Shown piece after piece: positions 5,954-51,822 of a DNA stretch of 64,000 nucleotides. The translations under genes and the position numbers were made by a program. Location of the stretch: the NCBI GenBank assembly GCA_026982565.1, contig JALSGV010000201.1, positions 27,658 to 91,657 on the forward strand. The letters run 5' to 3'. Below the pieces are notes generated by a model that was given only the letters and a program-made list of their open reading frames with translations, was not told the DNA's origin and made no database searches. This DNA comes from Gammaproteobacteria bacterium. GTDB lineage: Bacteria; Pseudomonadota; Gammaproteobacteria; SZUA-140. The stretch's first letter is position 1. Every line of letters begins with the position of its first letter.

Positions 5954-5956
5954 GGC

Positions 5957-8484: not shown

Positions 8485-8508
8485 TCGTCGAACAAGTCAT
8501 TCAGGTCA

Positions 8509-10547: not shown

Positions 10548-10594
10548 GATAATCCACAACGTACCATATATTTTTCAGCACTGCCGGCCCGCCC

Positions 10595-11710
10595 TCACCG
10601 CGCATATCCTGTCATTTCGAGATAACCATGACCTGAAACCTCTTCATCGCCCTGCTTCCCCTTTACCTCCACAGCCCCTTCCCAGTAGCGGACCGAGGTA
10701 TCGAGTTCCTGGTTTTTCAGCATGGATTGAATCTCGACTTCCAGCCCGGCAAGGGGGATTTCCATGCGCCAGGCCACGGGATAAAGACCGCCCAAGGGGC
10801 TCTCCCAGGTATCCAGCGCCTCCAGGAAGACATCTTCACGGCGCAGCGCTGTTGTCCCGCCTTCCGGGTCGATCAAGGTGCCACTGCTGAAGGGTTCTAC
10901 ACGACCATCCTTGTGGCGCAGCTGGTAGTACATTAGATCGTACCCGTTGTTCAATTGCAGGGAGAACCAGTCCCACCCCGCCTGCTCTTCACTCAATGCG
11001 CTGGTGCTCCACTCCCGGTCCAGCCAGGACAGGCCCGCAACCGGGTAATGTTCATCTCCCAGCGTAATGACGCCTTTTGTTGCGATGCGGGGAAGGGAAT
11101 AATAGTAGGAGGCATTGCCTGGCTCCGGCCCCTTGCGGCTCAGCCCGCGATCACCCTGCAGGACGACGGGTTTGAGCGGCGACAGGGTCAGGGAAATGGC
11201 CATATCGCTTTCGCCTGCCTGCAGGGTCCATGTTTCATCTTCGCCATCCACGGCCTCGACGCGCCAGTCTTCCAGCCATACCCGGAAAGGCGAGGCTTCG
11301 ACACCGGCCAGTCCCGCGGCATTGCGGGCGAAACGCTCATGGAAACGAAATTCCTGTGACTCCACATCTGTCAACGCCAGATGCGCCATGTAGACTTGCT
11401 TGGTCGCCCAGGCGGAGGAGCGCTCAACCCGACCAGGCGCCAGGGCAAAACGGAACAGCACCAGTTGATAACCAAAATGCCGTCCCTGATCCGTTGCAAG
11501 ATTACCGGTGAAATACCACCATTCAGTGCGGTAGTCCGGGTGGGCGCCATGATCCTCGGGGAAACGGAATTCACGGGCTGTCTCGGCGCGCGCGAAGCCT
11601 TCCGGAGTACTATCTCCCTGCCCAAGGAAGGAGGATAATGCCCTATCGGCATCCGCTTGCGCATCAGGCGAACGGCTGCAGCCCGGGATCGACCACAGGG
11701 CCAAGACCAT
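10595..11710 (-). CDS. AttH-like / CrtC-like lipocalin-fold secreted protein (COG5621 'predicted secreted hydrolase'); lipoprotein
   Basis: Lipobox LALWSIPGCS, then FPEDHGAHPDYRTEWWYFTGNL, which is typical of the AttH/hydroxyneurosporene-synthase-like family. An upstream alternative start at 11776 overlaps the GGDEF-EAL gene. Confidence 0.55.
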   Translation of the reverse strand: MVLALWSIPGCSRSPDAQADADRALSSFLGQGDSTPEGFARAETAREFRFPEDHGAHPDYRTEWWYFTGNLATDQGRHFGYQLVLFRFALAPGRVERSSAWATKQVYMAHLALTDVESQEFRFHERFARNAAGLAGVEASPFRVWLEDWRVEAVDGEDETWTLQAGESDMAISLTLSPLKPVVLQGDRGLSRKGPEPGNASYYYSLPRIATKGVITLGDEHYPVAGLSWLDREWSTSALSEEQAGWDWFSLQLNNGYDLMYYQLRHKDGRVEPFSSGTLIDPEGGTTALRREDVFLEALDTWESPLGGLYPVAWRMEIPLAGLEVEIQSMLKNQELDTSVRYWEGAVEVKGKQGDEEVSGHGYLEMTGYAR

Positions 11711-11733
11711 GATTGAACAGATCAGAAAGCGAC

Positions 11734-14232
11734 TCAAGACGAATTCAACAGACCCCACTGAGAAGTTTTGACCCATTCTATCAGGTCGGCGGGAGGAAGG
11801 GGACGGCTCATGAAATATCCTTGCGCCTCATCACAGCCCAGGACAAGCAGTTCGTTATAGGTTTCCTGGTTCTCCACGCCTTCTGCTATCACCTTGAGAC
11901 CCATATTGTGGGCAAGATCAATGGTGGATTTCACAATCATGGCATTGCTCTTGTCAGACAACATGTCCGTCACGAACGAACGGTCTATCTTGATGTCATC
12001 GACCGGCAGCGTTTTCAAGTAGGCCAGTGATGAATAACCCGTGCCAAAGTCGTCGATGGCAAGCTTGACCCCCATGGCGCTCAGCTCCTTCAATATACCC
12101 AGCGCCAGCGTCTGATCGGCCATGATGGCGCTCTCGGTGATCTCCAGTTTGAGATGCCCGGGCTCCATTCCCGTCTGCTCCAGCGCTCTGGCCACCTGCG
12201 TCCGCAGCTCCGGGTTCTGCAGGTCCTTTGCCGACAAATTCACAGCCACAACCATATCTGCGCTGATGTCCTGGCAGCGGACACAGACACTCAATGTCTT
12301 TTTCAACACCACCTGACCCAGTTTTTGAATGAGGCCGCTACGCTCTGCGAGAGGGACGAAGGTATCGGGAAACATCAGGCCGTGCTTTGGATGGGACCAG
12401 CGCACCAGGGCCTCGACACCGGCGATTTTCCCCGAGGACAGATTTATGACGGGCTGGAAATGTATCTCCAATGCCTCATTCTCGATGGCGTTACGCAGCT
12501 CCCCCATAAGAACCAGGTTTCGCAGATTGTAATGATCCAGGTCCGTATCATATACCGCAATACCGTCATCCCTTTCCTTGGCCACGTACATGGCAACATC
12601 CGCATGCTGTATCAGCGTCGAGACATCCGCGCCATGTTGCGGATATAACACGATGCCAAGACTCCCTTCAAGATGGAGCGTATGCCCATCCAGCGTGACG
12701 GCCTCATCAAATGCGCTATGCACCTTGGCCGCGATTTTCCTTGCGCCTGCCTCATCGACCCCCGGCAGCAGAATGGAAAACTCGTCTCCTCCCAGGCGGG
12801 CAAGGGTATCCGATTCCCGCAATACCGCCTGCACCCTGGCAGCGACATGCTGGAGGACCTTGTCGCCGAAATGGTGGCCCAGGGTATCGTTTATCTCCTT
12901 GAAACGGTCGAGGTCCATATACAGAATGGCGACAGAGCCTCTTTCGCGGTGCGCAGCGGAAATTGCCTGCTCGACCCGGTCTTCCAGCAGCGTGCGATTG
13001 GGCAGGCCTGTCAGGGCATCATGGAGGGCCTGGTGGCGCAGCGCCTCGATGCGCTTCTTCTTGACCGTGATATCACGAATAATCGCCAGAAAATAGCGCT
13101 TCCCTTCGACCCACATCTCGCTGGTGGACATTTCGATGGGGAATGTCGACCCATCCTTGCGACAGCCGAGTTCCTCCCGGATCCTGCCGATCACGTTACC
13201 CTTGCCCGTCTTGAGATAGTTAGCGATATACTCATCGTGTTTTTCACGCGTGGGGAAAGGGATGATGATCTCGACATTCTGGCCGGCCAGCTCCCCGGAT
13301 GAATAGCCGAACATGCGTTCCATGGCAGGGTTGGCAGACTCGATCATGCCATTTTCATCGACTACCACCATGCCATCGAAGCTTTGCGCCATAATGGCAT
13401 GGAGACGCTGTTCGCGACTGCGCAGGCTGCGCCACATGCTCCTGAAGATCCGGGCCATTTTTCCCAGTTCATCCTGGCGGTTTTCCGGCAAGATGATGTT
13501 TTCTTCGCCTGCGCCGATTCGCTGCATGGCGGCGCACATCATATGGACTGGACGTAAAACGGACAGACGCAGCATGAGCAACAAGATAAGGCCGAGAAAA
13601 AAAGCCACGCCTATGGCCAGCATCCAGAGCCTGAGACGAAGCGACTCAATATCCTGCAACAAACCGCCCGTATTGATAGAGAGGCGCAAAACACCCCGCA
13701 GCGGAGATGATTCATAGCCATGACAGGGCAGGCACTCCTGCTCTGTCTGGATAGGCATCCATATGGAGATTTTCTCTGGCGCGCCGGACATATCCAGGGC
13801 GGTCCGTCCCTTCAATGCCCGGGAAAAATTCACATCGCTGACGGTACCGGAATGTTGTGGTGGAACGGGCTGGCGCTCGAAAATGACGGACTGGCGGAAA
13901 TTATTGACGGCCTCGACGGTTGAGAGATCCGTGAAAGCCTCCCGGCCATCCCTGCGCAATACTTCAATGTCCAGGATGTCTTCCAGCTCACGCATTCGGT
14001 CCAGCCAGCCACGGGCGAGGACACCCTGGCCGTTGAGCATGAGTGTCTGCAGGCTGGAGAGGATGGTTTGCGCCTGAAGCTCCGCCTGTTGCGCCGCCTC
14101 CTGGTCCATCATCTGGCGCACCTGGCGCTCGATCCAGAAGCCGGCAAGCACCATGGCCACGAAGAGACTGAGCGCCAGGAACAAGGCAAAGCGCGCACCC
14201 AGACTTTTCATGCCAGAAGAGTCTCTGTGCAC
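11734..14232 (-). CDS. membrane c-di-GMP turnover protein: TM, periplasmic domain with CxxCH haem-c motif, TM, HAMP, PAS, GGDEF, EAL
   Basis: CLPCH sits between two TM segments. PAS region (AIMAQSFDGMVVVDENG). GGDEF is intact (RLGGDEFSIL). EAL is intact (EALVRW…EITES…DDFGTGYSSL…EGVE). Confidence 0.9.
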   Translation of the reverse strand: MHRDSSGMKSLGARFALFLALSLFVAMVLAGFWIERQVRQMMDQEAAQQAELQAQTILSSLQTLMLNGQGVLARGWLDRMRELEDILDIEVLRRDGREAFTDLSTVEAVNNFRQSVIFERQPVPPQHSGTVSDVNFSRALKGRTALDMSGAPEKISIWMPIQTEQECLPCHGYESSPLRGVLRLSINTGGLLQDIESLRLRLWMLAIGVAFFLGLILLLMLRLSVLRPVHMMCAAMQRIGAGEENIILPENRQDELGKMARIFRSMWRSLRSREQRLHAIMAQSFDGMVVVDENGMIESANPAMERMFGYSSGELAGQNVEIIIPFPTREKHDEYIANYLKTGKGNVIGRIREELGCRKDGSTFPIEMSTSEMWVEGKRYFLAIIRDITVKKKRIEALRHQALHDALTGLPNRTLLEDRVEQAISAAHRERGSVAILYMDLDRFKEINDTLGHHFGDKVLQHVAARVQAVLRESDTLARLGGDEFSILLPGVDEAGARKIAAKVHSAFDEAVTLDGHTLHLEGSLGIVLYPQHGADVSTLIQHADVAMYVAKERDDGIAVYDTDLDHYNLRNLVLMGELRNAIENEALEIHFQPVINLSSGKIAGVEALVRWSHPKHGLMFPDTFVPLAERSGLIQKLGQVVLKKTLSVCVRCQDISADMVVAVNLSAKDLQNPELRTQVARALEQTGMEPGHLKLEITESAIMADQTLALGILKELSAMGVKLAIDDFGTGYSSLAYLKTLPVDDIKIDRSFVTDMLSDKSNAMIVKSTIDLAHNMGLKVIAEGVENQETYNELLVLGCDEAQGYFMSRPLPPADLIEWVKTSQWGLLNSS

Positions 14233-20088: not shown

Positions 20089-21960
20089 TCAAGCGGGAAT
20101 ACGGTCCAGGTTCACAACATTATCTGGCACTACTTGTGACGCGGGATGCTTAGGCACCAATTTACCTAGCAAATCATGAAGCCGGGTGTCTTCATAAAAC
20201 TCGCAGGCCTCTTCAAGGGCCCGGATATCGGCCTCCAGCGATTCCCAATCACTTTCGTAGGAGCGCGCCAACAAAATCTTGTCATGGCTCGTGGCAAGAT
20301 GATCCTCCTGATCATAAAACAATTCCTCGTAGAGCTTTTCTCCAGGGCGCAGGCCTGTAAAAACTATCTCGATATCCTCACCAGGAACCTTGCCAGAAAG
20401 ACGGATCATTTGTTCGGCCAAATATGAAATCTTGACTGGCTCCCCCATATCCAGCACAAAAATCTCTCCTCCCCCACCTATCACAGCGGCCTGCATAATC
20501 AGCTGGGATGCTTCCGGAATAGTCATGAAATAGCGGGTGATTTCCGGGTGTGTAACTGTAATTGGGCCGCCCTCCTTGATCTGCTTGTGAAACAAGGGGA
20601 CAACGCTGCCAGCGGAACCCAGGACATTTCCGAAGCGCGTCGTGATAAAGCGCGTTCTTGAGCGCCCATTCAAGGACTGGCAATAAAGTTCCGCAATACG
20701 CTTGGTTGCCCCCATCACATTGGTCGGGTTGACGGCCTTATCAGTGGATATCATAACGAATGTTTCACAACCAAAACGGTCAGCCATGGCCGCCATGAGC
20801 TTGGTGCCCATCACATTGTTGCGTACTGCCTCACGGGCTCTCTGCTCCAGCATGGGGACATGTTTGTAGGCGGCGGCATGAAAAATCATCTCAGGCCGGT
20901 ATGTTTCATAGGCCTTGACCACTGAAGCCCGGTCACGCACATCCCCAAGGTAAGCATAGAGCACGAGGTCCGGATACTTGAGTTGAAGCTCCCGCTCTAT
21001 CCGATACAGATTATATTCATTATTTTCGAACACAATGAGTGCGCCGGGTCCCAGGCGGGCAATCTGGCGGCACAGCTCTGAACCGATGGAACCCCCACCG
21101 CCACTCACCAACACAGACTTCCCCGCCACGCCCTCACTAATAGCCTTCCAATCCAGGGACACGGGATCCCGGCTCAACAGGTCGTCCAAAGCCACTTCCC
21201 TGACATCATTGATACTGGCGCGCCCAGACAGCAGATCCTGAAAACGAGGCACAGTACGGAAGGGGATATCCACCTGTTCACATATCTCGACAATACGGCG
21301 CATCTGGGCATTGCTTGCCGAGGGAATAGCGATAATGACAATATCCACTTCGAATTTGTCAAGCATCTCAGCGAGCCGATTTATCGGCCCCAAAACCGGA
21401 ACGCCATGCATCTTGCTGCCACGGAGACGTTTGTTGTCATCCAGAAAACCAACCGGCATATATTCGCCACCGCGCCGCATATCGCGGCACAGCATCTCTC
21501 CTGCCTGGCCGGCCCCAAGGATCAAAACACGTTTGCAATCACCCCTGGATAAACTTGTGAATCGTTGCTCATTCCATATCCGATAAATCAGCCTCGGCGC
21601 GCCCAGGAGAAACACCAGATACACGGGGTAGAACAGGGAAACCGTCCTCGGCACCCCGTCCATTCGCTTAAATATAAACAGAATCAATGTGATAACAAGG
21701 ACACCAAGAACAGCAGCGCGCAGAATATTCCATAGATCCGCTATACTGGCGAAGCGCCACAATCCGCGATAGAGGCCAAATCTCCACAGAATCAATCCCT
21801 GAGCCACCATAACCACGGGGAGTGTCAGCCACAAATCCTGCCATGCAGGTTGGGGAATCGAGAAGTTATAGCGTGTGAAATAGGCGAGTCCCCAGGCAAC
21901 CGCCACCATCCCCAAATCATGTATCGCAATGGTTACACGACGATTTATCCTTCTTATCAC
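20089..21960 (-). CDS. membrane-anchored UDP-GlcNAc 4,6-dehydratase (WbpM/PglF/CapD family)
   Basis: 623 aa. N-terminal four-TM domain, then two Rossmann regions (ILGAGQAGEML; VSGGGGSIGSEL) and a YKHV-containing SDR catalytic region, as in WbpM/PglF. Confidence 0.9.
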   Translation of the reverse strand: MIRRINRRVTIAIHDLGMVAVAWGLAYFTRYNFSIPQPAWQDLWLTLPVVMVAQGLILWRFGLYRGLWRFASIADLWNILRAAVLGVLVITLILFIFKRMDGVPRTVSLFYPVYLVFLLGAPRLIYRIWNEQRFTSLSRGDCKRVLILGAGQAGEMLCRDMRRGGEYMPVGFLDDNKRLRGSKMHGVPVLGPINRLAEMLDKFEVDIVIIAIPSASNAQMRRIVEICEQVDIPFRTVPRFQDLLSGRASINDVREVALDDLLSRDPVSLDWKAISEGVAGKSVLVSGGGGSIGSELCRQIARLGPGALIVFENNEYNLYRIERELQLKYPDLVLYAYLGDVRDRASVVKAYETYRPEMIFHAAAYKHVPMLEQRAREAVRNNVMGTKLMAAMADRFGCETFVMISTDKAVNPTNVMGATKRIAELYCQSLNGRSRTRFITTRFGNVLGSAGSVVPLFHKQIKEGGPITVTHPEITRYFMTIPEASQLIMQAAVIGGGGEIFVLDMGEPVKISYLAEQMIRLSGKVPGEDIEIVFTGLRPGEKLYEELFYDQEDHLATSHDKILLARSYESDWESLEADIRALEEACEFYEDTRLHDLLGKLVPKHPASQVVPDNVVNLDRIPA

Positions 21961-31610: not shown

Positions 31611-32573
31611 CTAAGTCCTGAGCACGTCGCGAAGGAATAATGATGTCTTTAATATTAAACTGGGTGTTTTATATATTGTGAAATATGGATGCTGCCTTGC
31701 ACCAAATGCGCGGAAATAGCGCTCAATTGACTCAATCATAGAACCTTCGAAATCGAATCTTTTAGTTACAGTTGAAGCATGGAGAATTGCATGCCACATA
31801 CACAAACTGGTTGCCCCACTGTTTCTTAATTTCGGGTCGCTCCCTCCCATAATATAATAAGCACTATTTTCATCCCATACGATATAAATTCCCGCATGGT
31901 GACGACCCTCAGGGTCCTCTGCCACCCATATCTTTCTACAATGATGCTTGACACAGGCGGAATCCAGGCGGTGAATAAAGCCATCTGAATATGGCTGCTG
32001 TATTCCCTGACGATTATAGGTTAGCCTGTTTAGACGGATGAATTCATCCAAATCCACGTCATCGCGTATCCTGAGATTAAGTCGAGACTCCGCTTTTCTT
32101 ATATCAGTCCGTATATTTGCTTGCATTTCAGACCAGAGGTGCTCGCTATCTGAAAGATCAGGAATTACATATGTATAATTTGTCGTTTGCTTGAATCCAT
32201 TCCAGTAAAAAGGCAGCCAGTTTAAATTTTTAAAACTCCAACTTTGAATAAAATGATCAAATTCGGGTAATTGGTCTATCAATTGCTGTATTAGATCTTT
32301 TTCTTCAGACAAGGCCTTGGCATACTTAGCATTAGAAGGGCACAACCAGGGACCAAGTGTTTGGGTCAGGCATGGCTGAGTAATTATGGTGAAGCCATAT
32401 TTTCTCTTAGTATAGTAAGGCATGGCGGCCATGACTTTCCCGCCTTTCTCTACAATCGCGGCCTCCCAGTGGCCTGAACCTTCACATACGGCATCCAACC
32501 ACCAATCACGTGAAAAAATCGGGATGGTCGGTTCATTCTCACAAAGTTTCCGATAAATATCTTTATTGTCCAT
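31611..32573 (-). CDS. FemAB/BioF2-like GNAT-fold acyl/aminoacyl transferase (tentative)
   Basis: 320 aa. Size and two-lobed composition resemble the Acetyltransf_6/FemAB-like proteins that occur in polysaccharide loci. Three-bp gap to the upstream gene and one-nt overlap with the sulfotransferase. Confidence 0.4.
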   Translation of the reverse strand: MDNKDIYRKLCENEPTIPIFSRDWWLDAVCEGSGHWEAAIVEKGGKVMAAMPYYTKRKYGFTIITQPCLTQTLGPWLCPSNAKYAKALSEEKDLIQQLIDQLPEFDHFIQSWSFKNLNWLPFYWNGFKQTTNYTYVIPDLSDSEHLWSEMQANIRTDIRKAESRLNLRIRDDVDLDEFIRLNRLTYNRQGIQQPYSDGFIHRLDSACVKHHCRKIWVAEDPEGRHHAGIYIVWDENSAYYIMGGSDPKLRNSGATSLCMWHAILHASTVTKRFDFEGSMIESIERYFRAFGARQHPYFTIYKTPSLILKTSLFLRDVLRT

Positions 32574-33529
32574 TATTCCCTACTATTATGAAAAATATTT
32601 TTCAGGCTTGAATAGATATCTTCATCAATACGTACTGATCTCTTGTTGGGAAACTTATCAGGAACACTAAATCGGCGCGCGAGATGTACATCATGAGATA
32701 TAAGAAACCTTTCAAAGTTGTCCAGTGATGACCTTACATCACTACAAAAATCTTCATACTTGAAAGTAAGAACACGTCGTCGATCAATGAATCCATTTTT
32801 TTCGGCTTCATATATAACATTATGAATAGCGCGTATCTGTTCTACCGCCTGGCTTGCTGGCTCAAGTAGTTTTAATTGCTCAATATTCGGAGGAGGCACT
32901 GACCACCACTGATCATAGCGCCCCAACGCCGTTTTCCTGCCATCGAGTATTGAAAGTGCGTTATCAAACTCATTTCTCTTAATAATGACAAACAATGCTT
33001 CAGGAATGTGCATTGAAATTGGTTCAAGCCTCATGCTTGCATAGAGATTTTTGAAAATGACTGGTTTGTCAAATGTCTCTGTCAAGGAAATAATGGAGCG
33101 GCGGAACCTGCGCATTCGTGCATCATCAACATTCTCTGACGATACATATACAGGTTTACTTGGAAAAAATCTGTACCACCATAAACCGCACTCTGATGGC
33201 CCTGATCTTCCTAAGGTTGCACCAAAACGGGAAGTGTAGTCAGAGCATGACTTGTCTTTTAGTGGACGAAACAAGCGCTCTGCCAGAGCCGGAGCACCAA
33301 AGAATTTACAGTGTAAATTGCTTAAATATCCCACATCAAATGCATCTGTAAGCACCTGATATACTAGCGTACTACCCGAACGTGGTGCCCCAATAATAAA
33401 TACTGGCGGATATTTAAGGTCTCTGTCGTAAACAGGCGCCATTAGCATATCAATATAATTCAGTACTATTTTGTTTACCAAGATAAATAACCGCCGCCAG
33501 TATCTGGACGGAGAAAGATACTTTGTCAT
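32573..33529 (-). CDS. PAPS-dependent sulfotransferase
   Basis: 5'-phosphosulfate-binding loop PVFIIGAPRSGSTLVYQVL near the N-terminus. About 318 aa, typical of bacterial Sulfotransfer_3 proteins. Confidence 0.7.
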   Translation of the reverse strand: MTKYLSPSRYWRRLFILVNKIVLNYIDMLMAPVYDRDLKYPPVFIIGAPRSGSTLVYQVLTDAFDVGYLSNLHCKFFGAPALAERLFRPLKDKSCSDYTSRFGATLGRSGPSECGLWWYRFFPSKPVYVSSENVDDARMRRFRRSIISLTETFDKPVIFKNLYASMRLEPISMHIPEALFVIIKRNEFDNALSILDGRKTALGRYDQWWSVPPPNIEQLKLLEPASQAVEQIRAIHNVIYEAEKNGFIDRRRVLTFKYEDFCSDVRSSLDNFERFLISHDVHLARRFSVPDKFPNKRSVRIDEDIYSSLKNIFHNSRE

Positions 33530-39858: not shown

Positions 39859-40143
39859 TTATTAACCCGGCAATAATATATATCGTATTCAGCCATTGCG
39901 TGCCGGTTCGCTGCAAGGCGGCGAAACTTGCTGTAGTCATTCTACAGCAAGTTTCGCCAACGCAGTCAGCGGGACGGCACGCAATGGCCTGTCTTTTAAT
40001 ATCAACCTGTTAGGGACTTCAGGCCTGCGCTGGCACGGCGTTGCGGCGCTTGCCAATGGAATCACCATTGCCTGCGCACCGCGCCTTGTTCCAGCACAGG
40101 CCTGAAGTCCTGAATACGATATATATTGTTGCCGGGTTAATAA
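39859..40143. mobile_element. 285-bp MITE-like element: 34-bp terminal inverted repeats (33/34 match) enclosing two long near-perfect hairpins
   Basis: Left TIR ttattaacccggcaataatatatatcgtattcag (39859-39892). Right TIR ctgaatacgatatatattgttgccgggttaataa (40110-40143). Internal perfect inverted repeats: ccattgcgtgccg/cggcacgcaatgg and ggcgaaacttgctgtag/ctacagcaagtttcgcc. Also gacttcaggcctgcgctgg/ccagcacaggcctgaagtc. Confidence 0.55.
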
Positions 40144-40530
40144 CCAGCCGCGGGATTCCATGTCGATCAAGATGCGTTCCGCGTCTTCTGTTAGTGTGGC
40201 TACATGCTCATGTCCTTTTTTTAGGGCATCAGCCAGCCTGCCGACCCTGACAGAGGGGGTCTCTTTCTCCACAATCTGCGCCAGGTTGGGGGCGCTAAGC
40301 ACAACATCTATCTTCCGTCCCCCTAACTTGAGACTGATGCGGCCCGATATTCTCGCACTCAGCCATGCGGGCTCATCAACCGGATGCGGGATTTCAACCA
40401 GCAGGTCAATATCACCACCACGGGCATTATCATCTGTGCGGGAGCCAAACAAGGTGACTTGCGCCTCATCTCCAGCCAGGTCCGCAATTGCCTGGCGGAT
40501 TATATCAATTTGATACGGTTCTAGTCTCAT
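39937..40530 (-). CDS. minimal nucleotidyltransferase (MNT, Pol-beta superfamily) antitoxin-like protein; 3' end runs into the MITE-like element
   Basis: From the ATG at 40530: MRLEPYQIDIIRQAIADLAGDEAQVTLFGSRTDDNARGGDIDLLVE (GS…DIDL NTase motif). The frame continues without a stop into the element, and the last ~68 codons are element-encoded. The native C-terminus is probably lost. Confidence 0.6.
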   Translation of the reverse strand: MRLEPYQIDIIRQAIADLAGDEAQVTLFGSRTDDNARGGDIDLLVEIPHPVDEPAWLSARISGRISLKLGGRKIDVVLSAPNLAQIVEKETPSVRVGRLADALKKGHEHVATLTEDAERILIDMESRGWLLTRQQYISYSGLQACAGTRRGAQAMVIPLASAATPCQRRPEVPNRLILKDRPLRAVPLTALAKLAVE

Positions 40531-40678
40531 TATTATGCTCTGCCGGGGGAGGGTGTCGAAAAAACCAGTTTTCTTTAGTTGGCTGTGAGGAATGAACTCC
40601 AACATGTTTGGTATTCTATCGTCGTGCTTAACCGGCAGGTAACGCGGAAGACTGTCCGGTTGAAGCAATTGTTCAGCT

Positions 40679-40945
40679 CTATCCGTAGTACGTCCACATT
40701 CGGATAATTTTAACAACACGCTCTTCTTCGTAAACTTGATAGACCAATCTATGTTGAATATTTATTCTTCTTGAATATGCCCCAGACAAGTCACCAACTA
40801 GCTTTTCATAAGGTGGTGGTTTTTTATAAGGATTCTCTTGCAGCAATTCCAGCAACGATTTAGCCTTCTGCTTCAATCCAGATGCTGCAATTTTCTTAGC
40901 GTCTTTTTCTGCCTGTTTTGTATACATTAACTCCCAACTCACCAA
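40679..40945 (-). CDS. yoeB: YoeB/Txe-family toxin (RelE/ParE superfamily)
   Basis: …YSRRINIQHRLVYQVYEEERVVKIIRMWTYYG parallels E. coli YoeB …WSRRITEEHRLVYAV…IAACRYHY. Seven-bp overlap with the upstream antitoxin. Confidence 0.85.
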   Translation of the reverse strand: MVSWELMYTKQAEKDAKKIAASGLKQKAKSLLELLQENPYKKPPPYEKLVGDLSGAYSRRINIQHRLVYQVYEEERVVKIIRMWTYYG

Positions 40946-41181
40946 TCAAGCTCCTTAGAGCACTCTGATATATTTTGACTCATACCTTCTTTAATTGATT
41001 CCCGCATTCCGGGTACTGACAGCAAATGTAGCGTTTCAGCAATTGCATTCCAATCGTCCTCAGACACAAGGACGGCATTAGCTCTTTTTCCCGTAATTAC
41101 AATGGGTTGATGAGTCTCCGCCGCCTCATCAATAAGGCTATAGAGCTTAGAGCGGGCTTCTGTTGCATTCAATATAGTCAT
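40939..41181 (-). CDS. yefM: YefM/Phd-family antitoxin
   Basis: MTILNATEARSKLYSLIDEAAETHQPIVITGKRANAVLVSEDDWNAIAETLHLLSVPGMRESI is a typical Phd/YefM fold sequence. Direct GTAC-containing repeats lie upstream (41195-41230), consistent with a YefM-YoeB operator. Confidence 0.85.
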   Translation of the reverse strand: MTILNATEARSKLYSLIDEAAETHQPIVITGKRANAVLVSEDDWNAIAETLHLLSVPGMRESIKEGMSQNISECSKELDW

Positions 41182-41295
41182 AATAAATACCCCCTCAATA
41201 TAGCGTACGACTAAGCGTACGGTACATCAAGGCCTATTTTGTCCCTTTACAGGGAATCCCGAGGCCCCGAGCTTGGCTCGGCACAAGGTGCCTTG

Positions 41296-41484
41296 TTAGG
41301 CGATATACCCCCATTTCTTGAACTGTTCATGTAATTCAGGCTCATCCTTGAATACTTGGCAATAAATATACTCCGGCGCCAAATCTGCGCCGTTCGGCCA
41401 TACTATCGTTTCAGGCTCATCATCAACTTTTAGTTTGGAAAATATGGACACGTTCTTCAACGGTTCGAACGCCGGCCCTCTCAA
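41296..41484 (-). pseudogene. probable 5'-truncated DUF2442-like gene remnant
   Basis: The 62-aa ORF …GPAFEPLKNVSIF…VDDEPETIVWPNGADLAPEYIYCQV resembles the C-terminal half of DUF2442 proteins. The position where the N-terminal half should be is occupied by REP-like repeats (41535-41665). Confidence 0.3.
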
Positions 41485-41534
41485 AGCGCTTGATAAATCC
41501 GCAACGTGTAAAACAATGCTTTTTTCTCCATTTA

Positions 41535-41665
41535 TCCCCTCACCCCAACCCCTTTACCCTCAAGGGGCACCGAGGTCCCAGCGGGAGAGGGGCTTTTGCG
41601 ACACCCTCCACAGAGGCGGGGGGCTTTTGCGCCTTCCTACGGAGGGAGGCGGTTGGGGGCTTTCT
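41535..41665. repeat. REP-like intergenic repeat cluster (family with core GGAGGGTGYCGCAAAAG / CCCCTCTCCC)
   Basis: cccctcaccccaacccc…gggagaggggcttttgcgacaccctcc…gggggcttttgcgcc. Related copies are at 44725-44800, 53160-53400 and 60128-60200. Confidence 0.6.
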
Positions 41666-41698
41666 TGAGGGCAAGATAGGTTGTTCGCCACCTCACTT

Positions 41699-42031
41699 TT
41701 AGGCTCTTTCGTAGAATACTTTTCCCGCCCTTTTTATATGCTCGATCAGATTCTCATTGTCTATCTGATCATATAACGACAAGTCTGTTTTATAGGGCAA
41801 TAACAAATCGTCTATCTTCAGTTCAATGGCTTGCAGATCCTCCCATTTCATCGCTGACCCTATTATTGTCAGGTCGATATCTGACGCTGGTCTGTAGTCG
41901 CCTTTAGCCCTTGATCCATAGATTATAACCTGTTCTACAGCAGGCGTATCCGCGAATATGCTGCGTATTTTCGAGATGACTTGTTCGTCCAGGCCAAAGT
42001 CCGGCTCGATATTATTGGGCGCTGTGTTCAT
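41699..42031 (-). CDS. minimal nucleotidyltransferase (MNT) protein, second copy in the triad
   Basis: …VIIYGSRAKGDYRPASDIDLTIIG… Four-bp overlap (ATGA) with the upstream HEPN gene. Confidence 0.75.
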   Translation of the reverse strand: MNTAPNNIEPDFGLDEQVISKIRSIFADTPAVEQVIIYGSRAKGDYRPASDIDLTIIGSAMKWEDLQAIELKIDDLLLPYKTDLSLYDQIDNENLIEHIKRAGKVFYERA

Positions 42032-42450
42032 GCAGCACCTTCCTGCAGATGCGCCAGGCGCTTATCCAGCGCCATGAACAGTTGATGATATTTGTCCTTT
42101 ATATTTGTTAGTATCGATTCCGCCGTTTCTTCATTGTACGTATGCGAGGTTCGATTTCGATCAACCAGCATTTGCATCCAACCCTCACCATCTTCGATCA
42201 ATCCTCTGCTGAAGCTTTCCCGTATGGTGTCACGAGAACCCACGATTCCACCGATACCTTGCCATAATAGGTAGTCCTTCAGCGCATTCCAGGCAAGCTC
42301 GTAGGTATATTCAAAAGCCTGAATCACGCCCTGTTTTTCCAAAGGCGTCAATTCCCGTTCCGCCATCAGGCGCATGGCGCTATCCAGCTGTCCAAAAGCC
42401 TTTTTGAATTGGGCGTATCTTTGCTTCCAGCGGATATCTTCGTTTGTCAT
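42028..42450 (-). CDS. HEPN-domain protein (HepT / HI0074-like nucleotidyltransferase substrate-binding protein; putative RNase toxin)
   Basis: Rx4HxY motif present: DRNRTSHTY. 140 aa, helical. Four-bp overlaps on both sides with the flanking MNT genes. Confidence 0.8.
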   Translation of the reverse strand: MTNEDIRWKQRYAQFKKAFGQLDSAMRLMAERELTPLEKQGVIQAFEYTYELAWNALKDYLLWQGIGGIVGSRDTIRESFSRGLIEDGEGWMQMLVDRNRTSHTYNEETAESILTNIKDKYHQLFMALDKRLAHLQEGAA

Positions 42451-42740
42451 AGCTGAATTCCTGTTTTTTTCGCCATGCGGTGGATGGCTCTCAATGGCGC
42501 ACTCCGGAGTTTTAGGTCGATGTCTATTCGCTGTTCCCCGATACGCTCCCAGAGCTTGCTGAGTATGCGGAATTTGTGCTTTAACAATTTCTCCTGGATT
42601 TCCGTTTCAGCATAAAGATCGATATCACCACCATGGCGGGAATCATCTAAGCGTGACCCAAAGAGGTAGATATCTGCCGTAGGGTCCACGCCGTGAATGA
42701 CCTCGCGGATTGCCGTTTTTTCATGTTCATTCAAGCGCAC
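42447..42740 (-). CDS. minimal nucleotidyltransferase (MNT) protein, first copy in the triad
   Basis: MRLNEHEKTAIREVIHGVDPTADIYLFGSRLDDSRHGGDIDLYAE…. Confidence 0.75.
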   Translation of the reverse strand: MRLNEHEKTAIREVIHGVDPTADIYLFGSRLDDSRHGGDIDLYAETEIQEKLLKHKFRILSKLWERIGEQRIDIDLKLRSAPLRAIHRMAKKTGIQL

Positions 42741-42877
42741 GTGTCTATTTTGTGTTCTGCGCCGGATTCGGCGCGTTCAGCACAACCTCCTCCTGCCTCT
42801 TAATTTGTGACTGACCCGGTCTGTGACCCTTGCGCTCAGCCATACAGATTCGTCTCCCGGATGCGGAGCCTGTAACA

Positions 42878-44647
42878 TTAGAAAGACCAGATCAGCGGCA
42901 CGAGTACCACGACAATTATACCGACCAGGAGTGTCAGTGGGATACCGATTTTGACATAATCCGAAAAATGGTAGCCGCCGGGTCCATAGACCATGAGGTT
43001 GGTCTGGTAGCCGATGGGGGTGGCGAAGCTGACCGAGGCCGCGACCATGATGGTGATCATGAAGGGCATGTAGTCCACGCCCAGCGCCTGGCTGGCGGCC
43101 ATGGCGATGGGAAACATGAGCACGGCGGCCGTATTGTTGGTGATGACGGCGGTGAACAGCGCGGTGATGGCATAGATCAATACCAGGGCGACGTGGGGAC
43201 TCTCGCTCGTCAGGGCCAGCAGGGTTTGTGCAATGAACTGGGCGGCGCCGGTTGTCTGGAGCGCCTGCCCGATGCCCAGTGAGGCGGCAATCACGATCAG
43301 CACCTGCCAGTCCACGGAGCGCCTTGCCACGCTACCTACTGTACACTTTGTAATCAGCATCAGGCCTGCCGCCAGCATGGCGGCCTTGAGCATGGTCAGC
43401 ACCCCTGTCGCGACGGACAGCACCATGGCGACGAGGATCAGGATGGCGGTGAGGGCATTTTCATGACGGGGCGGGCTGGAATCCTCCAGGCGGCTGATGA
43501 GATAAAAATCCCTTGAATTGCGCTGCTGCTCGATAAAATCCGGGGGGGCTTCAAGCAGCAGGACGTCGCCCGGCCGTAGGACGATGTCGCCGATTTTCAT
43601 TTTCATTTGCTCGCCATTGCGGGCCACGGCGATGATGGCGGCGTTGTACCTGTTCCGGAAGCGGCTTTCCCTGATCGTCTTCCCCGCCGTGGGGAAGCTG
43701 TCGGAGACGACGGCCTCGACCAGGCAACGGGTGGTCCTGGGCATGTTGAGCTTGAAGACCTGGTTGGTCGCCGGCCTGAGGCCGCGAATCTTTTGCAGGT
43801 CGACCACTGATTCCACCACGCCCGCGAATACCAGGCGGTCGTTGGCCTGGAGCTTCTCCTGCGGTGAAACGGCCGGCAACAGGGCGTCCTTGCGGTCGAT
43901 TTCTATCAGATACAGGCCGGGCAGCTGGCGCAGCCCCGCCTGCTCGATGGTTTTGCCAATCAGCGGCCCGTCGGGATCGACAATCATCTCCACGGTATAG
44001 CCGCGCACGTCCGAAAACTGGCTGATGGCGGAGCGCCGGTCGGGCAGCAGCCATTTGCCCAGTACGATGACGGCGATGATGACGAATAGCGTCAGGGGGA
44101 GGCCTATCCACGCCAGTTCGAATATCCCCAGGCCGGAGGAGCCCGTTTCCTTGATCAACAGGCCGTTTATCACCAGGTTGGTGCTGGTGCCAATCAAAGT
44201 ACAGGTGCCACCCACCATGGCGGCATAACTCAATGGTATCAGCAGTTTTGAAATTGAAAGGCGGTACCGCCGGGACCAGTCCTGGATGGCGGGGATCATC
44301 ATGGCGACAACGGGCGTGTTGTTGAGAAACGCGCTCATGGCCGCGACCGGGGTCATCATTCTGACCTGCGCCCCGGCAAGGGTTTTGGGGCGCCCCAGGA
44401 TGTATTCAACCACCCAGGCGATGGCCCCCGTTTCCTTCAGCCCGGAAACGACGACATAGAGGGCGCCCACGGTCACCATGCCCTCATTGGCCAAGCCGGC
44501 CAGGGCCTGCTCGGGAGAGAGGATTCCGCCGACGAGGAGGAGCGTCAGGCCGCCCATTAAGATGACATCAGGGGGGATCCGGTTCAGGACCAGCAGGAAG
44601 AAGCAGAGGCCTATGACCGCCAATGTTACCCAAGCGTCAATTTCCAT
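42878..44647 (-). CDS. DASS/SLC13-family anion permease with two internal TrkA-C (RCK_C) domains; likely sulfate or other divalent-anion transporter
   Basis: 589 aa. N- and C-terminal transmembrane repeat units flank two soluble TrkA-C-like modules (…GYTVEMIVDPDGPLIGKTIEQAGLRQ…; …RCLVEAVVSDSFPTAGKTIRESRFRNRYNAAIIAV…). Lies immediately upstream of cysC. Confidence 0.75.
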   Translation of the reverse strand: MEIDAWVTLAVIGLCFFLLVLNRIPPDVILMGGLTLLLVGGILSPEQALAGLANEGMVTVGALYVVVSGLKETGAIAWVVEYILGRPKTLAGAQVRMMTPVAAMSAFLNNTPVVAMMIPAIQDWSRRYRLSISKLLIPLSYAAMVGGTCTLIGTSTNLVINGLLIKETGSSGLGIFELAWIGLPLTLFVIIAVIVLGKWLLPDRRSAISQFSDVRGYTVEMIVDPDGPLIGKTIEQAGLRQLPGLYLIEIDRKDALLPAVSPQEKLQANDRLVFAGVVESVVDLQKIRGLRPATNQVFKLNMPRTTRCLVEAVVSDSFPTAGKTIRESRFRNRYNAAIIAVARNGEQMKMKIGDIVLRPGDVLLLEAPPDFIEQQRNSRDFYLISRLEDSSPPRHENALTAILILVAMVLSVATGVLTMLKAAMLAAGLMLITKCTVGSVARRSVDWQVLIVIAASLGIGQALQTTGAAQFIAQTLLALTSESPHVALVLIYAITALFTAVITNNTAAVLMFPIAMAASQALGVDYMPFMITIMVAASVSFATPIGYQTNLMVYGPGGYHFSDYVKIGIPLTLLVGIIVVVLVPLIWSF

Positions 44648-44724
44648 GGTGAGCTACCGGTTGTCCTGTCGGCATGGGTTTTCTGTCCAGGTGTATCGTT
44701 AAATCGTATACGGCGCGCCTCCAT

Positions 44725-44800
44725 CACTCCCCTCACCCCGGCCCTCTCCCGGAGGGAGAGGGGGCTTGTTTGGGCGATGGCGTGTTTGAGTGGGAGAGGA
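44725..44800. repeat. REP-like intergenic repeat (same family as 41535-41665)
   Basis: cccctcaccccggccctctcccggagggagagggggcttgtttgggcg…gagtgggagagg. Confidence 0.55.
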
Positions 44801-44831: not shown

Positions 44832-45443
44832 TTATTTCTGGATCACGCCCCGTTCCAGGAGGAGATTGATCACCTTGGCGGCGCTTTCCTCCAGGGACTC
44901 ACTGCCCGTGTCAACGGTCAATTCGGGATTCAGCGGTTCTTCATAGGGCGAATTGATGCCCGTGAATTCCTTGATCTCCCCTGCCCTCGCCTTTTTGTAG
45001 AGCCCTTTTACATCACGCTCCTCGCAGATGTCCAGGGAACACTTGCAGTAGATCTCGAAAAAATCACCCTCAGCGTTGATCTTTCTGACATTGTCGCGGT
45101 CCGCCCGGAAGGGGGAAATAAAGGCCGTCAGACTGATCACGCCCGCCTCCACGAAGAGCTTGGCCACCTCGCCGATGCGGCGGATGTTCTCCACCCGGTC
45201 CTCATTGGAAAAACCAAGATCTCCGCAGAGCCCATGACGGATGTTGTCGCCATCCAGAACATAGGTGCGGCACTTCATTTCGTAGAGCTTTTCCTCCACG
45301 GCATGGGCCAGCGTGGATTTCCCTGAACCCGACAAGCCGGTGAACCACAGGATGACGCTCTTGTGGCCGTTCAGTTTCTCACGGGCTTCACGGTCGATGG
45401 TGGCATGGTGCCACACCACGTTGCTGCTGACTTTTTTTTCCAT
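44832..45443 (-). CDS. cysC: adenylyl-sulfate (APS) kinase
   Basis: Walker [12 protein letters not shown]. Also …[12 protein letters not shown]…GFS…DR.ENIRRI…ISPF… APS-kinase motifs. 203 aa. Confidence 0.9.
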
Positions 45444-45569: not shown

Positions 45570-45800
45570 TTATGCTGCTTTGATTACAGCTTCCTCTATA
45601 TTTTTTGGTAGGCTTACATAAATAAAGTATTCTTCTGGATACAAATAATCCTCACCAGACTCATCTATCACCCGTATTTGCTTGCGTTGCTCCGCCTCTG
45701 AATCTGGAAGCGCCTCATATATCTTTCTCTTTTCCAGAGAAGCAGGGTAATCTTCGTTTTTTATACAGATAACCAATTGATGTGATTTCATATTTCTCAT
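45570..45800 (-). CDS. hypothetical small acidic protein (76 aa)
   Basis: Intact ORF in a low-GC patch. Acidic (many D/E). Located downstream of the basic 87-aa ORF. No family recognised. Confidence 0.35.
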   Translation of the reverse strand: MRNMKSHQLVICIKNEDYPASLEKRKIYEALPDSEAEQRKQIRVIDESGEDYLYPEEYFIYVSLPKNIEEAVIKAA

Positions 45801-45810
45801 GGTTGTTGAC

Positions 45811-46074
45811 TTAATCCAGGTAACGTTTGATTTTTATTTCCTTTTTTCCACTGCCTGTCGCTTCATACCAGTGTACTTCGGCGCGTACTATCGACCCATC
45901 AGTCAATTTGACCTTCGCCACACCTTTTCTTTTTTTCCATTTTCCTTTGCCATATATCTTCTGTAATCTGGACAGCTCGCGAATTCTTTTCCCTGTCGCA
46001 AATGTCTCCTGATTCTCAATCCTTCCGATTATTTCAAATTGCATTAAGCGACTATTCCCTGTGCCCTTGCCCAT
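45811..46074 (-). CDS. hypothetical small basic protein (87 aa, Lys/Arg-rich)
   Basis: Intact ORF in a low-GC patch, 10 bp upstream of the acidic ORF. No family recognised. Confidence 0.35.
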   Translation of the reverse strand: MGKGTGNSRLMQFEIIGRIENQETFATGKRIRELSRLQKIYGKGKWKKRKGVAKVKLTDGSIVRAEVHWYEATGSGKKEIKIKRYLD

Positions 46075-47187: not shown

Positions 47188-47706
47188 CTATTCCCCGCAT
47201 AGCACTATCTTTTTCGGCAACCTCTCCTCGTTGACGCCCATGCGCACCTTGGCATAATCACGGATCTTGTTATAGGCGTTAAGCAGAAGATGGCTGTATT
47301 CCTTCGCCATTTTCAGGTCTTCCGCAAAGGATTCCGGACTCTGCATGTGTTCATGTACTAAGCGGTTGCGCAATTCCCGGGCCTCAAGCCATCGCTCAAC
47401 GCTGTCCATTACACCCAGTTGCTCAGCACGGTTCAGGTTCTCTATCAGACTGCCTGGCCTTTCCGCCTGGGCCATAAGCCATCGGGGAAGGAGCTTATCC
47501 GCTATGGTATCCTGCATGCGGCCGAACCGGGAGACAAAGGCTTCAAGCCGCTCAGCAATCTCCGGCGCGGATTCCAGTCCGCGCACCCAATCTGCCGTAA
47601 TAGCACAGGCATCCAGCCGCCCCCAACTGTAAGCAAGGTGCCTTCCCTCATGGGAAACGATATCCAGAGTATGGAGAAAGCGGTCTACCGGCAAAACCTT
47701 GTTCAT
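47188..47706 (-). CDS. HEPN-like putative toxin partnered with the upstream MNT
   Basis: 172 aa, helical, with RNRLVHEH (Rx4H, a HEPN-type motif). The ATG overlaps the MNT stop (ATGA at 47703-47706). Confidence 0.55.
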   Translation of the reverse strand: MNKVLPVDRFLHTLDIVSHEGRHLAYSWGRLDACAITADWVRGLESAPEIAERLEAFVSRFGRMQDTIADKLLPRWLMAQAERPGSLIENLNRAEQLGVMDSVERWLEARELRNRLVHEHMQSPESFAEDLKMAKEYSHLLLNAYNKIRDYAKVRMGVNEERLPKKIVLCGE

Positions 47707-48002
47707 AGCTGCACCCCTGAGCGTAATGCTTCCTCATGTACGGCTTGACGCTGAGTCTCTGGATCGAGAATCAAGACATCGATGGGTTGGTCGCCAAGAC
47801 GGACCTGGAGACGGGCCACGAATTTTAACACCTTGCGTTCGCGTTCGCTGACAGGGTGTTCAGAACGGACAAGAAGATCGATATCGCCACCACGAGCTTC
47901 ATCATCGACGCGGGAGCCAAACAAGAGAACACTGGCATCCGGACCAAATATCTCATGCACGGTCTCGCGGATTACGGATTTTTCTTCATCGGTGAGGCGC
48001 AC
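47703..48002 (-). CDS. minimal nucleotidyltransferase (MNT) antitoxin-like protein
   Basis: (V)RLTDEEKSVIRETVHEIFGPDASVLLFGSRVDDEARGGDIDLLV. The N-terminus aligns with the other MNTs in this window (MRLNEHEK…, MRLEPYQ…). This favours the GTG start at 48002, five nt after the gmd stop, over the in-frame ATG at 48056 inside gmd. Confidence 0.65.
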   Translation of the reverse strand: MRLTDEEKSVIRETVHEIFGPDASVLLFGSRVDDEARGGDIDLLVRSEHPVSERERKVLKFVARLQVRLGDQPIDVLILDPETQRQAVHEEALRSGVQL

Positions 48003-50763: not shown

Positions 50764-51822
50764 TTACTGTGCGACATCGAGCTTCTTTTTCTTCTTGACC
50801 TTTTCCGAAAATTCTTGTGCAAATACGGCAGTCAGTGCCGCGACCAGGCCCAGTACAGCGGCCAGAACAATGATAAGTTTGCGGTTGGGCGCCGTCGGGT
50901 TCTGAGAGCGCATCGTTGGCGTGATCGCCCGCGTCTTGATGATATTGGCGATCTTGGCCTTCATTTCCAGGATCTTCTCCTGCTGTTCCGCCTGGGCACG
51001 GCTGTTATTTGCCAACTCCTGTTGCAGCAAATCCCGCTCCGATGCCAATCCCAGGTGCAGTTGCTCTATCAACATGGATTCGCGCTCCTGATACTGCTGG
51101 ATTTCGTTGTCAATGAGCAGCAGGGTCATGGCCTTGGCCTCACCCGTCACCTCGCTGACTGCCTTGATGCGGTTTTTCCTGGATTCCTCGATGACCTTGC
51201 CGATTTCATCGATCTGTTTGGTAATCAGCTTGGATTTCTCATCGAGGCGCTCTATCTGGTTTTCGGTAAAGACCGCTTTATCCTGCAGTTCACCCAGTTT
51301 GTTTTCTGCGCCATGCAATTGGGCCTCGAGTTCCGCTTTAATGACAGAAATCGTACTATCATGATCTTTTGCAATCTTATCGACGATGGATTGATGCAGT
51401 TCCGCCAGAAGGAGGTTCTCACCTTCCCTACCTTCACTGCTCAATACTACGATTTCGCTTCCCTTGGGGATCGCGGCAGCTATATTGATATTTGTGCTCT
51501 CTTCAGGATGGGTGCTTCCATATTCATGGATGACCAGAGGTATGTAACTCTGCTGCAATTTGGCCAATACGGTGCCTGGCTCTTCCAACAATCCATCAGT
51601 ACTGCGGGCAATTTCTATAGAGGTTGTATAGGTATATTTGTTGCTTTGCACCAGCGCAACGCCCAGTCCCAGCAAGACTGCCCCCACAAGAATAGTTACA
51701 AGCAGTTTTTTCCGTTTCTCCAATATCAACCAGAGATCCACCAGGCTGATCTCATCCTCCTGGTAGTAGGTGTGTAAGGCCTCGATCTCCTGGGGCAGGA
51801 TTTGTCTTTTTTCGCTATTCAT
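50764..51822 (-). CDS. wzz: O-antigen chain-length determinant (Wzz, PCP-1 family)
   Basis: N-terminal TM (LLVTILVGAVLLGLGVALV), a long periplasmic coiled-coil region, C-terminal TM (LIIVLAAVLGLVAALTAVF) and a lysine tail. 352 aa. Confidence 0.8.
   Translation of the reverse strand: MNSEKRQILPQEIEALHTYYQEDEISLVDLWLILEKRKKLLVTILVGAVLLGLGVALVQSNKYTYTTSIEIARSTDGLLEEPGTVLAKLQQSYIPLVIHEYGSTHPEESTNINIAAAIPKGSEIVVLSSEGREGENLLLAELHQSIVDKIAKDHDSTISVIKAELEAQLHGAENKLGELQDKAVFTENQIERLDEKSKLITKQIDEIGKVIEESRKNRIKAVSEVTGEAKAMTLLLIDNEIQQYQERESMLIEQLHLGLASERDLLQQELANNSRAQAEQQEKILEMKAKIANIIKTRAITPTMRSQNPTAPNRKLIIVLAAVLGLVAALTAVFAQEFSEKVKKKKKLDVAQ

Follow-up and report, generated by a model that had tools for sequence, protein, structure and literature searches.

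In YefM/YoeB toxin-antitoxin (TA) modules, the toxin is an mRNA interferase that depends on the ribosome; the antitoxin, which is labile, sequesters it and also represses the operon. Type VII modules pair a HEPN-fold toxin with an MNT nucleotidyltransferase. Of the Legionella pneumophila pair lpg2920/lpg2921, the HEPN member acts as an RNase; its MNT partner binds it and uses ATP to oligo-AMPylate the tyrosine of its RX4HXY motif, which renders it inactive (PMC11586414). In Shewanella oneidensis HepT, AMP is attached to this tyrosine, and a protein altered at this residue is no longer adenylylated (PMC7641770); a change at the acceptor position did not abolish toxicity (PMC4621449). An MNT-HEPN module has also been found inserted in the lysine operon of Thermus thermophilus HB8, in one strain but not in another (Makarova et al. 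2009, PMC2701414). Here we analysed a 64,000-nucleotide stretch of contig JALSGV010000201.1 (assembly GCA_026982565.1, Gammaproteobacteria bacterium, lineage SZUA-140), hereafter the window, in which a patch of small TA genes, hereafter the island (39859-42877), lies within an O-antigen locus. The island is probably a mosaic of independently acquired mobile TA cassettes, which accumulated, recombined and in part decayed where the conserved part of this locus gives way to the serotype-specific one. We base this reading on modules with different closest relatives, on a switch in homology inside the island, on gene fragments and on a break in synteny at the stop codon of the adjacent DASS permease gene. 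Every component is of a known kind, and as a collection of addiction modules the island, taken alone, is unremarkable.

The preliminary description of the window had placed a cluster of addiction modules inside an O-antigen locus, where gene content switches. This was borne out: every element that it listed was found, on the minus strand like all the genes discussed here, and Pfam confirmed an O-antigen locus of about 33 kb that runs from wzz to a WbpM-like gene. The island had been given as 39859-42740, with the right contents, but its right edge had to be moved to 42877 to take in a frameshifted MNT fragment located after the DASS stop codon (42878). On the other side, the first serotype-specific gene ends at 39755. 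Apart from small genes of the addiction-module type, the island holds nothing but a 285-bp MITE-like palindrome and REP-like repeats. In the order of transcription, these are the MNT fragment, MNT97, HEPN140, MNT110, the REP-like repeats, a DUF2442 fragment, YefM, YoeB, an MNT open reading frame (ORF) that starts at 40530, and the 285-bp element. Two modules look intact from their sequences (HEPN140/MNT110 and YefM/YoeB), next to one intact orphan antitoxin and three relics. Four nucleotidyltransferase-type modules had been counted within 8 kb; there are five MNT-derived sequences in that interval, but only two complete HEPN/MNT modules. Promoter and terminator scans gave results at chance level, and Rfam gave only sub-threshold matches, due to the palindromes.

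The position of the island was determined by comparison with a sister genome (L011, L012 (GCA_011322035.1) and L013 among the 174 comparison stretches that we fetched, which carry L numbers). The two genomes share the block rpsA-ihfB-lapA-pyrF-comEA-wzz-manC-gmd-[MNT-HEPN]-fcl-cysC-DASS at 75-85% nucleotide identity. The homology stops at the DASS stop codon (window 42878), and the island is absent from the sister, where the DASS gene is followed by a MarR-type helix-turn-helix (HTH) gene and then by unrelated sugar genes (epimerases, PEP mutase, methyltransferases). A remnant of this MarR-type gene was looked for and none was found. Because synteny ends at the DASS stop codon and the sister lacks the island, we conclude that the island stands where the conserved block meets the variable one, is lineage-specific and is tied to the variable block. 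The GC content fits this position, as it is intermediate in the island (0.43-0.50), with 0.54-0.62 on the conserved side and 0.35-0.46 on the variable side. The preliminary description had named, as jointly refuting it, absence of the island from related loci and non-functional genes. Absence was indeed observed in the sister genome, and loss of function only in part, three elements being relics and the rest looking intact.

The pair formed by HEPN140 (42028-42450) and MNT110 (41699-42031) is a close homologue of the Legionella system, which has been characterised both in structure and in biochemistry. HEPN140 is a HEPN toxin of the HI0074/NTase_sub_bind type (PF08780, E 1e-43; TIGR01987), which matched the HEPN toxin of PDB entry 8xdj over residues 1-137 (E 1.6e-43), and MNT110 matched the MNT protein of the corresponding Legionella-type pair (8xeh_E) over 99 residues (E 1.7e-25). 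The RX4HXY motif of HEPN140 reads RNRTSHTY, with H103 and Y105 invariant and R98 nearly so among 22 homologues, and the GSX10DXD motif of MNT110 is intact (GSRAKGDYRPASDID). The two genes overlap by 4 nt, and a relative of MNT110 directly follows the relative of HEPN140 in 75 of 80 metagenome loci. HEPN140/MNT110 thus appears to be a canonical module, complete with its two genes, in which the toxin precedes the antitoxin, and its motif, its adjacent MNT and its homology to a characterised pair assign it to type VII, with a predicted toxin activity. It shares with lpg2920/lpg2921 (8xdj, 8xeh) both motifs, the overlap of the genes and the HEPN-then-MNT order; it differs in its host and in the presence of an additional, unrelated MNT (MNT97) translationally coupled upstream. 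By analogy, binding of MNT110 and ATP-dependent oligo-AMPylation of the motif tyrosine would hold the RNase inactive, and loss of the MNT protein or removal of the AMP would free HEPN140, leading to RNA cleavage and growth arrest.

The MNT gene upstream of this pair, MNT97 (42447-42740), had been taken as the first member of an MNT-HEPN-MNT triad, an interpretation that we had to abandon. MNT97 belongs to what we call family A, i.e. MNT proteins of about 97-99 residues with the motif GSRxDDxxxGGDIDL and a C-terminal G-x-x-L. Ten homologues were found (71-88% identity), all of 97 residues, and in the two contexts recovered the next gene encodes a HEPN-like protein of 161 residues, intact in L010 and split into ORFs of 87 and 67 residues in L004. 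The nucleotide homology to L004 and L010 ends 3-8 nt beyond the MNT97 stop codon (window 42445 and 42439), while the homology to L094, the closest HEPN140 locus, starts at the HEPN140 ATG (42450). Furthermore, a family-A MNT was found directly upstream of the HEPN140 relative in none of 80 loci. Because homology switches source at the overlap, because no such upstream MNT was seen in these loci, and because MNT97 has its own 161-residue partner elsewhere, the triad is best described, as far as homology can tell, as a chimera in which an orphan antitoxin has been joined, at an ATGA stop/start overlap, to a foreign complete module. It would thus be a junction artefact and not a conserved three-gene unit, the toxin of MNT97 having presumably been swapped out at the start codon. 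A true three-component system, with two nucleotidyltransferases acting on one HEPN toxin, would account for the intactness of the three genes, for their 4-nt ATGA-type overlaps and for the low ratio of nonsynonymous to synonymous substitution rates (dN/dS) of MNT97 (about 0.07 when compared with its relatives). It is nevertheless very unlikely in view of the 0/80 count upstream as opposed to 75/80 downstream, of the alternative partner found in L010 and L004, and of the change in source of the homology at the start codon.

The second intact-looking module consists of a YefM/Phd antitoxin of 80 residues (40939-41181; PF02604, E 4e-20) and a YoeB/Txe-type toxin of 87 residues (40679-40942; TIGR02116, 97.3 bits for a cutoff of 51.8; PF06769; PF05016), the latter also being called as a gene in L001. 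Both are full length and are arranged as antitoxin then toxin in one operon. YoeB starts at a GTG that overlaps the stop codon of YefM (GTGA), and YefM is preceded by its own Shine-Dalgarno sequence and by a GTAC-containing repeat. The pair resembles E. coli YefM-YoeB in having a Phd/YefM protein encoded upstream of a Txe/YoeB toxin by overlapping genes, but the identity is low. The catalytic residues of E. coli YoeB are E46, R65, H83 and Y84. The positions of the glutamate and the arginine align with those of the protein encoded in the window, whose C-terminus is TYYG instead of YHY; a tyrosine appears to stand at the equivalent of His83, the pairwise alignment being uncertain in this region. 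By analogy, YoeB would be a ribosome-dependent mRNA interferase that a labile YefM keeps sequestered.

The remaining elements are broken. The MNT ORF located at 40273-40530 (PF01909; alignment with homologues) had been described as a lone MNT. It corresponds to residues 1-86 of a family-A MNT that is normally 99 residues long, its C-terminal 13 residues and its stop codon being lost: close homologues (66-84% identity) all have 99 residues and align with residues 1-86, i.e. 63-66% of the ORF. The rest of the ORF (…ALKKGHEHVATLTEDAERILIDMESRGWLL) matches the C-terminus of a HEPN-like partner type of 143 residues. In a tblastn search, residues 102-142 of the representative of this type, L174_143, aligned with window 40236-40114 with 61% identity (E 2e-12; the nucleotides are 75% identical). 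The toxin remnant comprises 31 codons outside the MITE-like element (40144-40236) and, as the alignment runs on into the end of that element, about 31-41 residues in all. The lone MNT therefore appears to be, as judged from these alignments, an in-frame fusion of an MNT with the tail of its own toxin rather than a plain MNT. An internal deletion of about 400 nt would have taken away the end of the MNT, the spacer between the two genes and the toxin's first 100 or so codons, including the RX4H motif. An origin of this tail from the HEPN172 type of toxin, which is encoded elsewhere in the locus (see below), was rejected; when a hidden Markov model (HMM) built on the HEPN172 family was run against the six-frame translation of the window, the tail showed no remnant of this type, and the other HEPN-like subfamily, that of L174_143, fits instead.

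The 3' end of the toxin remnant is interrupted by the MITE-like element (39859-40143), into which the fused ORF reads to stop at 39937. This 285-bp, short non-coding element contains nested internal palindromes (DNA fold z = -17) and has 34-nt terminal inverted repeats that are 97% complementary. A 31-nt pattern derived from its termini matched only its two ends, with zero matches expected by chance. It is flanked by TA dinucleotides, which could be a target duplication; TA being palindromic, they are indistinguishable from the repeat itself. The designation as MITE-like thus stands for the structure and not for mobility by copy number: the element is present in a single copy in the window, a search for its ends in the 174 fetched loci matched only the same contig, and, with one copy, 'MITE' is a structural description only. 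The order of events suggested by this arrangement is that the MNT was first fused to the tail of its deleted toxin, and that the MITE-like element was inserted later.

A second relic of family A is the 3' fragment that led us to extend the island (42745-42877). It is frameshifted and cut off at the DASS stop codon, as determined from its reading frames, from the family alignment and by tblastn with the 99-residue MNT of L174 (L174_99; E 3e-6). It encodes, in two frames, …HPGDESVWLSARVTDRVSHKLRGR / VVLNAPNPAQ, which parallels about residues 47-86 of the subfamily to which the lone MNT belongs. The DUF2442 remnant and the REP-like repeats of the preliminary description were both recovered. The DUF2442 gene (41296-41484) is truncated on its 5' side, has no in-frame ATG and covers only positions 33-67 of the 72 positions of the Pfam profile, so that it is not half of a full-length DUF4160/DUF2442 pair; a DUF4160-type partner was looked for and not found. 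The REP-like repeats, which are GC-rich and palindromic, lie at 41526-41680. Such units (CCCTCACCCC…GGGAGAGGGG) are dispersed in intergenic spaces, being also present at 44719-44790 and at about 34886, and one of them is 88% identical to a unit found at a different place in the sister genome (L011 1927-1968).

The catalytic centre of the toxin has been kept in none of the three family-A remains of the island. Loss of the catalytic part of the toxin before the rest would be the expected order of decay for addiction modules. The island is therefore a well-resolved example of how modules live and die, with loss of catalytic regions while antitoxin sequence persists, a putative toxin swap at a stop/start overlap and the nesting of a MITE-like element, all of this at the very breakpoint where the O-antigen locus changes its serotype genes. 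One could go further and consider everything dead, the island being a graveyard of inactive remnants. Three relics within 3 kb, the MITE-like insertion, the REP-like repeats, the lack of conservation of the C-terminal histidine in YoeB and the lack of an acceptor tyrosine in the conserved HEPN172 would all agree with this. The chance that it is so is nonetheless small, as HEPN140, MNT110, YefM, YoeB and MNT97 are full length, with intact motifs, low dN/dS values and preserved translational coupling.

The closest relatives differ from one module to the next, being in L004 and L010 for MNT97, in L094 for HEPN140-MNT110 and in L174 for the lone MNT. Several of these relatives are themselves parts of TA strings inside polysaccharide loci. 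L010 reads comEA-[RHH-PemK]-[MNT97-HEPN161]-[MNT133-81-residue ORF]-manC, and L094 reads MarR-[MNT-HepT]-HEPN fragment-[HEPN-MNT]-…-flippase-like gene. L174 has MNT-HEPN pairs ahead of epimerase genes and of a Polysacc_synt (Wzx-type) gene. In L004 (JGI 3300044985, Ga0494342_00000004, 1-14000), the 12 kb that separate rml genes from an ABC-2 transporter pair (ABC2_membrane + ABC_tran), itself followed by a glycosyltransferase, contain at least six TA-like pairs (HepT-like, PIN-DUF6364, HigB-HTH and three MNT-HEPN pairs), in which several toxins are truncated or split, together with an IS200-type transposase. TA modules generally favour variable regions. In the mosaic that we propose, independently acquired cassettes would pile up at a recombination junction, recombine together and decay. 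They would be mainly selfish hitch-hikers in a recombination hotspot, the intact ones penalising the loss of the surrounding DNA. As a separate observation, a MarR/HTH_24-type regulator recurs at the start of the variable part, beside TA strings (L011 11888-12217, L094 4307-4672, L004 7729-8010 and 8931-9536), and one of the copies of L004 is truncated where the MNT97 cassette starts.

Replacement flexible genomic islands of aquatic bacteria include O-chain clusters (PMC4033161), and the present locus resembles them in having conserved flanks and contents that are swapped among close relatives. The literature searched did not describe TA modules as regular inhabitants of O-antigen loci or as accumulating at an internal junction of such loci, which is not proof of novelty.

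Stabilisation of the O-antigen cassette or phage defence, both raised in the preliminary description, would be plausible effects of the intact modules. A stronger version is that the island is dedicated to defence, as an abortive-infection system linked to the receptor genotype that would fire when a phage using the O-antigen infects the cell. The O-antigen is a common phage receptor, about one third of the related HEPN/MNT loci are in polysaccharide clusters (see below), MNT110 and other MNT proteins match the PADLOC candidates PDC-S09 and PDC-M05A, and HEPN-MNT is among the cloned 'defence systems' listed in PMC13645617. The PADLOC matches are, however, weak and concern the generic MNT domain in unvalidated candidate models only (PDC-S09, PDC-M05A, PDC-M70A), HEPN proteins, YefM and YoeB giving no PADLOC match. 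Moreover, no validated defence gene was found within the island or next to it, only two of its five modules are unbroken and the sister genome does without it. We consider a dedicated defence island unlikely.

A further HEPN/MNT pair is found outside the island, in the conserved block between the GDP-fucose genes gmd and fcl. MNT99 (47703-48002), a family-A MNT whose start was assigned by homology with the 99-residue family, is 73% identical to its counterpart in the sister genome (L011_99); it begins 5 nt past the gmd stop codon and overlaps the next gene, HEPN172 (47188-47706), by 4 nt. HEPN172 has no match in Pfam, NCBIfam, PADLOC or PHROG. Its family comprises 776 homologues, of which the best 120 are 60-78% identical to it, in hosts that include Thiobacillus, Sedimenticola, methanotrophs, Halomonas and Alcanivorax, and in 78 of 80 genome loci a family-A MNT is encoded directly upstream of the HEPN172 relative. 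HEPN172 is recorded with exactly this protein sequence in NCBI, JGI, Logan and ENA sources. Alignment of the HEPN172 and HEPN140 families with hhalign gave a match of only 36 columns around the motif (probability 34%), and a profile search of the PDB sequences with the HEPN172 family gave nothing significant. Since sequence profiles were too weak, we resorted to fold comparison. The AlphaFold (AF2) model has a pLDDT of 93.7, and its best Foldseek matches in the PDB were type VII HEPN toxins (8xdj, 8xeh, 1wty, 7ae9, 7bxo, 5yep), with target-normalised TM scores of up to 0.77 and probabilities of up to 1.00, but with E-values of only 0.05-1. According to this model, HEPN172 has the HEPN fold, and we predict it to be a toxin.

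The motif of HEPN172 reads RNRLVHEH. RX4H is thus present, while RX4HXY is not, residue 120 being a histidine at the position of the acceptor tyrosine. The family consensus is RNRLVHEY, found in about 110 of 120 members, and the histidine variant occurs in 2 of 120. MNT99/HEPN172 resembles HepT/MntA of S. oneidensis (SO_3166/SO_3165) and the HEPN/MNT pair of Aphanizomenon (PMC7641770, PMC4621449) by its antitoxin-first order, its HEPN fold and an RX4H next to the acceptor position; it differs from them in that HEPN172 has no Pfam model and shows only weak sequence similarity outside the motif, and in that the copy in the window has histidine for the acceptor tyrosine. The order gmd-MNT-HEPN-fcl is shared by the sister genome and L073 (Gammaproteobacteria bacterium RBG_16_51_14). 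The nucleotide identity of the pair with L011 (75%) is like that of the neighbouring genes, and the dN/dS values were 0.20 for MNT99, 0.09 for HEPN172 and 0.07 for fcl, figures that are rough due to saturation of dS (>1) and that also average the history before any inactivation. The pair thus appears, from these comparisons, to be conserved across species and under purifying selection, as an older MNT-HEPN module that would have become fixed between gmd and fcl. As in the Thermus HB8 lysine operon, a HEPN/MNT pair is inserted in a biosynthetic operon, but the gmd-fcl insertion is old and common to at least three lineages. Modules made of a family-A MNT and a HEPN172-type protein are often present as 2-3 diverged tandem copies (L015, L017, L027, L036, L048, L049, L057), and those of L015 sit between two gmd paralogues.

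The location of MNT genes among NDP-sugar genes, with one pair exactly between gmd and fcl, could suggest that these small nucleotidyltransferases act in O-antigen synthesis, by nucleotidylating a sugar or the polymer, and not as antitoxins. This is extremely improbable, because each MNT is paired with a HEPN protein bearing the RNase motif, because the closest solved homologues are demonstrated TA pairs, and because the same families are also found outside sugar loci.

We also examined how often related modules are found near polysaccharide genes. In a census of the two nearest ORFs of at least 180 residues on each side of 32 non-redundant HEPN172-family genome loci (126 ORFs), the commonest Pfam domains were Epimerase (10), GDP_Man_Dehyd (8), RmlD_sub_bind (8), Polysacc_synt_2 (7), ABC2_membrane (5), ABC_tran (5) and Wzt_C (4). 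We then searched the flanks by tblastn with a panel of 25 polysaccharide genes, covering up to 10 kb per side where the locus was of the HEPN172 type and up to 6 kb where it was of the HEPN140 type. Two or more of the panel genes were present in 15 of 40 long HEPN172 loci and in 7 of the 22 HEPN140 loci that measured 8 kb or more, these loci not being phylogenetically independent and some of the metagenome ones clearly coming from the same population. About one third of the related HEPN/MNT loci, in two families and many taxa, are thus in polysaccharide clusters. At random positions, a few per cent would be expected, a figure estimated roughly from general genome content rather than computed as a control. 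Within these data the pattern is real, and it can be read in more than one way. One is that type VII HEPN/MNT modules are preferential and sometimes permanently fixed residents of surface-polysaccharide operons, as in gmd-[MNT-HEPN]-fcl, and are functionally coupled to them, an idea that we put forward tentatively and regard as rather unlikely. If it is true, the coupling could shield the operon from being deleted or replaced, or could take the form of an abortive response tied to the phage receptor, and one toxin gene could be swapped for another at the start codon while the antitoxin in front of it stays in place. Should the pattern survive a controlled genome-wide test, the questions would be whether TA modules hold surface-polysaccharide cassettes in place and whether they link defence to receptor type.

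The following points weigh against the island being a partly decayed mosaic of passively accumulated cassettes. The enrichment in polysaccharide loci could go beyond passive accumulation. MNT97, which shows no damage and whose translation is coupled to that of HEPN140, may have a role. In YoeB, a tyrosine appears to occupy the position of the C-terminal catalytic histidine, the dN/dS values have the imprecision mentioned above, and the presence or absence of the island was compared with one closely related genome.

As to the wider setting, the window is 99.96-99.97% identical to the metagenome contig k141_29949 (ENA ERZ27262642). L002 was rejected as an independent context, being the same sequence from another sample. 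The representative of the SLC13 (DASS) permease cluster (P0041) sits on a metagenome contig from a hydrothermal vent. The O-antigen locus is preceded by rpsA, ihfB, lapA, pyrF and comEA. Its conserved half contains, as assigned by Pfam, wzz (50764-51822), manC, gmd, fcl, cysC (adenosine 5'-phosphosulfate kinase; 44832-45443) and the SLC13/DASS permease gene (42878-44647). The variable half, after the permease and the island, encodes an oxidoreductase, an AT3-SGNH acyltransferase and a hexapeptide transferase, and then three DegT-type aminotransferases, two GT1 glycosyltransferases, a protein of the Wzy_C/O-antigen-ligase family and the WbpM-like protein (20089-21960; Pfam). Pfam annotation of L001 added a Polysacc_synt (Wzx-type) protein and a sulfotransferase (Sulfotransfer_3, 32573-33529) to this list. 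The presence of cysC and the SLC13 permease in the conserved half and of the sulfotransferase in the variable half suggests a sulfated O-antigen with its own supply of 3'-phosphoadenosine 5'-phosphosulfate. The sister genome has kept cysC and the DASS permease, and its variable block is different.

Finally, a conserved two-gene cassette encoding proteins of 76 and 77/87 residues lies between cysC and fcl (45570-45800 and 45811-46074, minus strand) and is missing from the sister genome. It gave no match in Pfam, NCBIfam or PADLOC, and the single-sequence AlphaFold model of the 77-residue ORF (pLDDT 57.5) was too poor for a fold search. The 87-residue family has 1435 representative clusters in a library of 1.8 billion proteins. 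In an unrelated contig (L175), the partner gene is also adjacent and is 51% identical, and the organisation of the cassette is TA-like.

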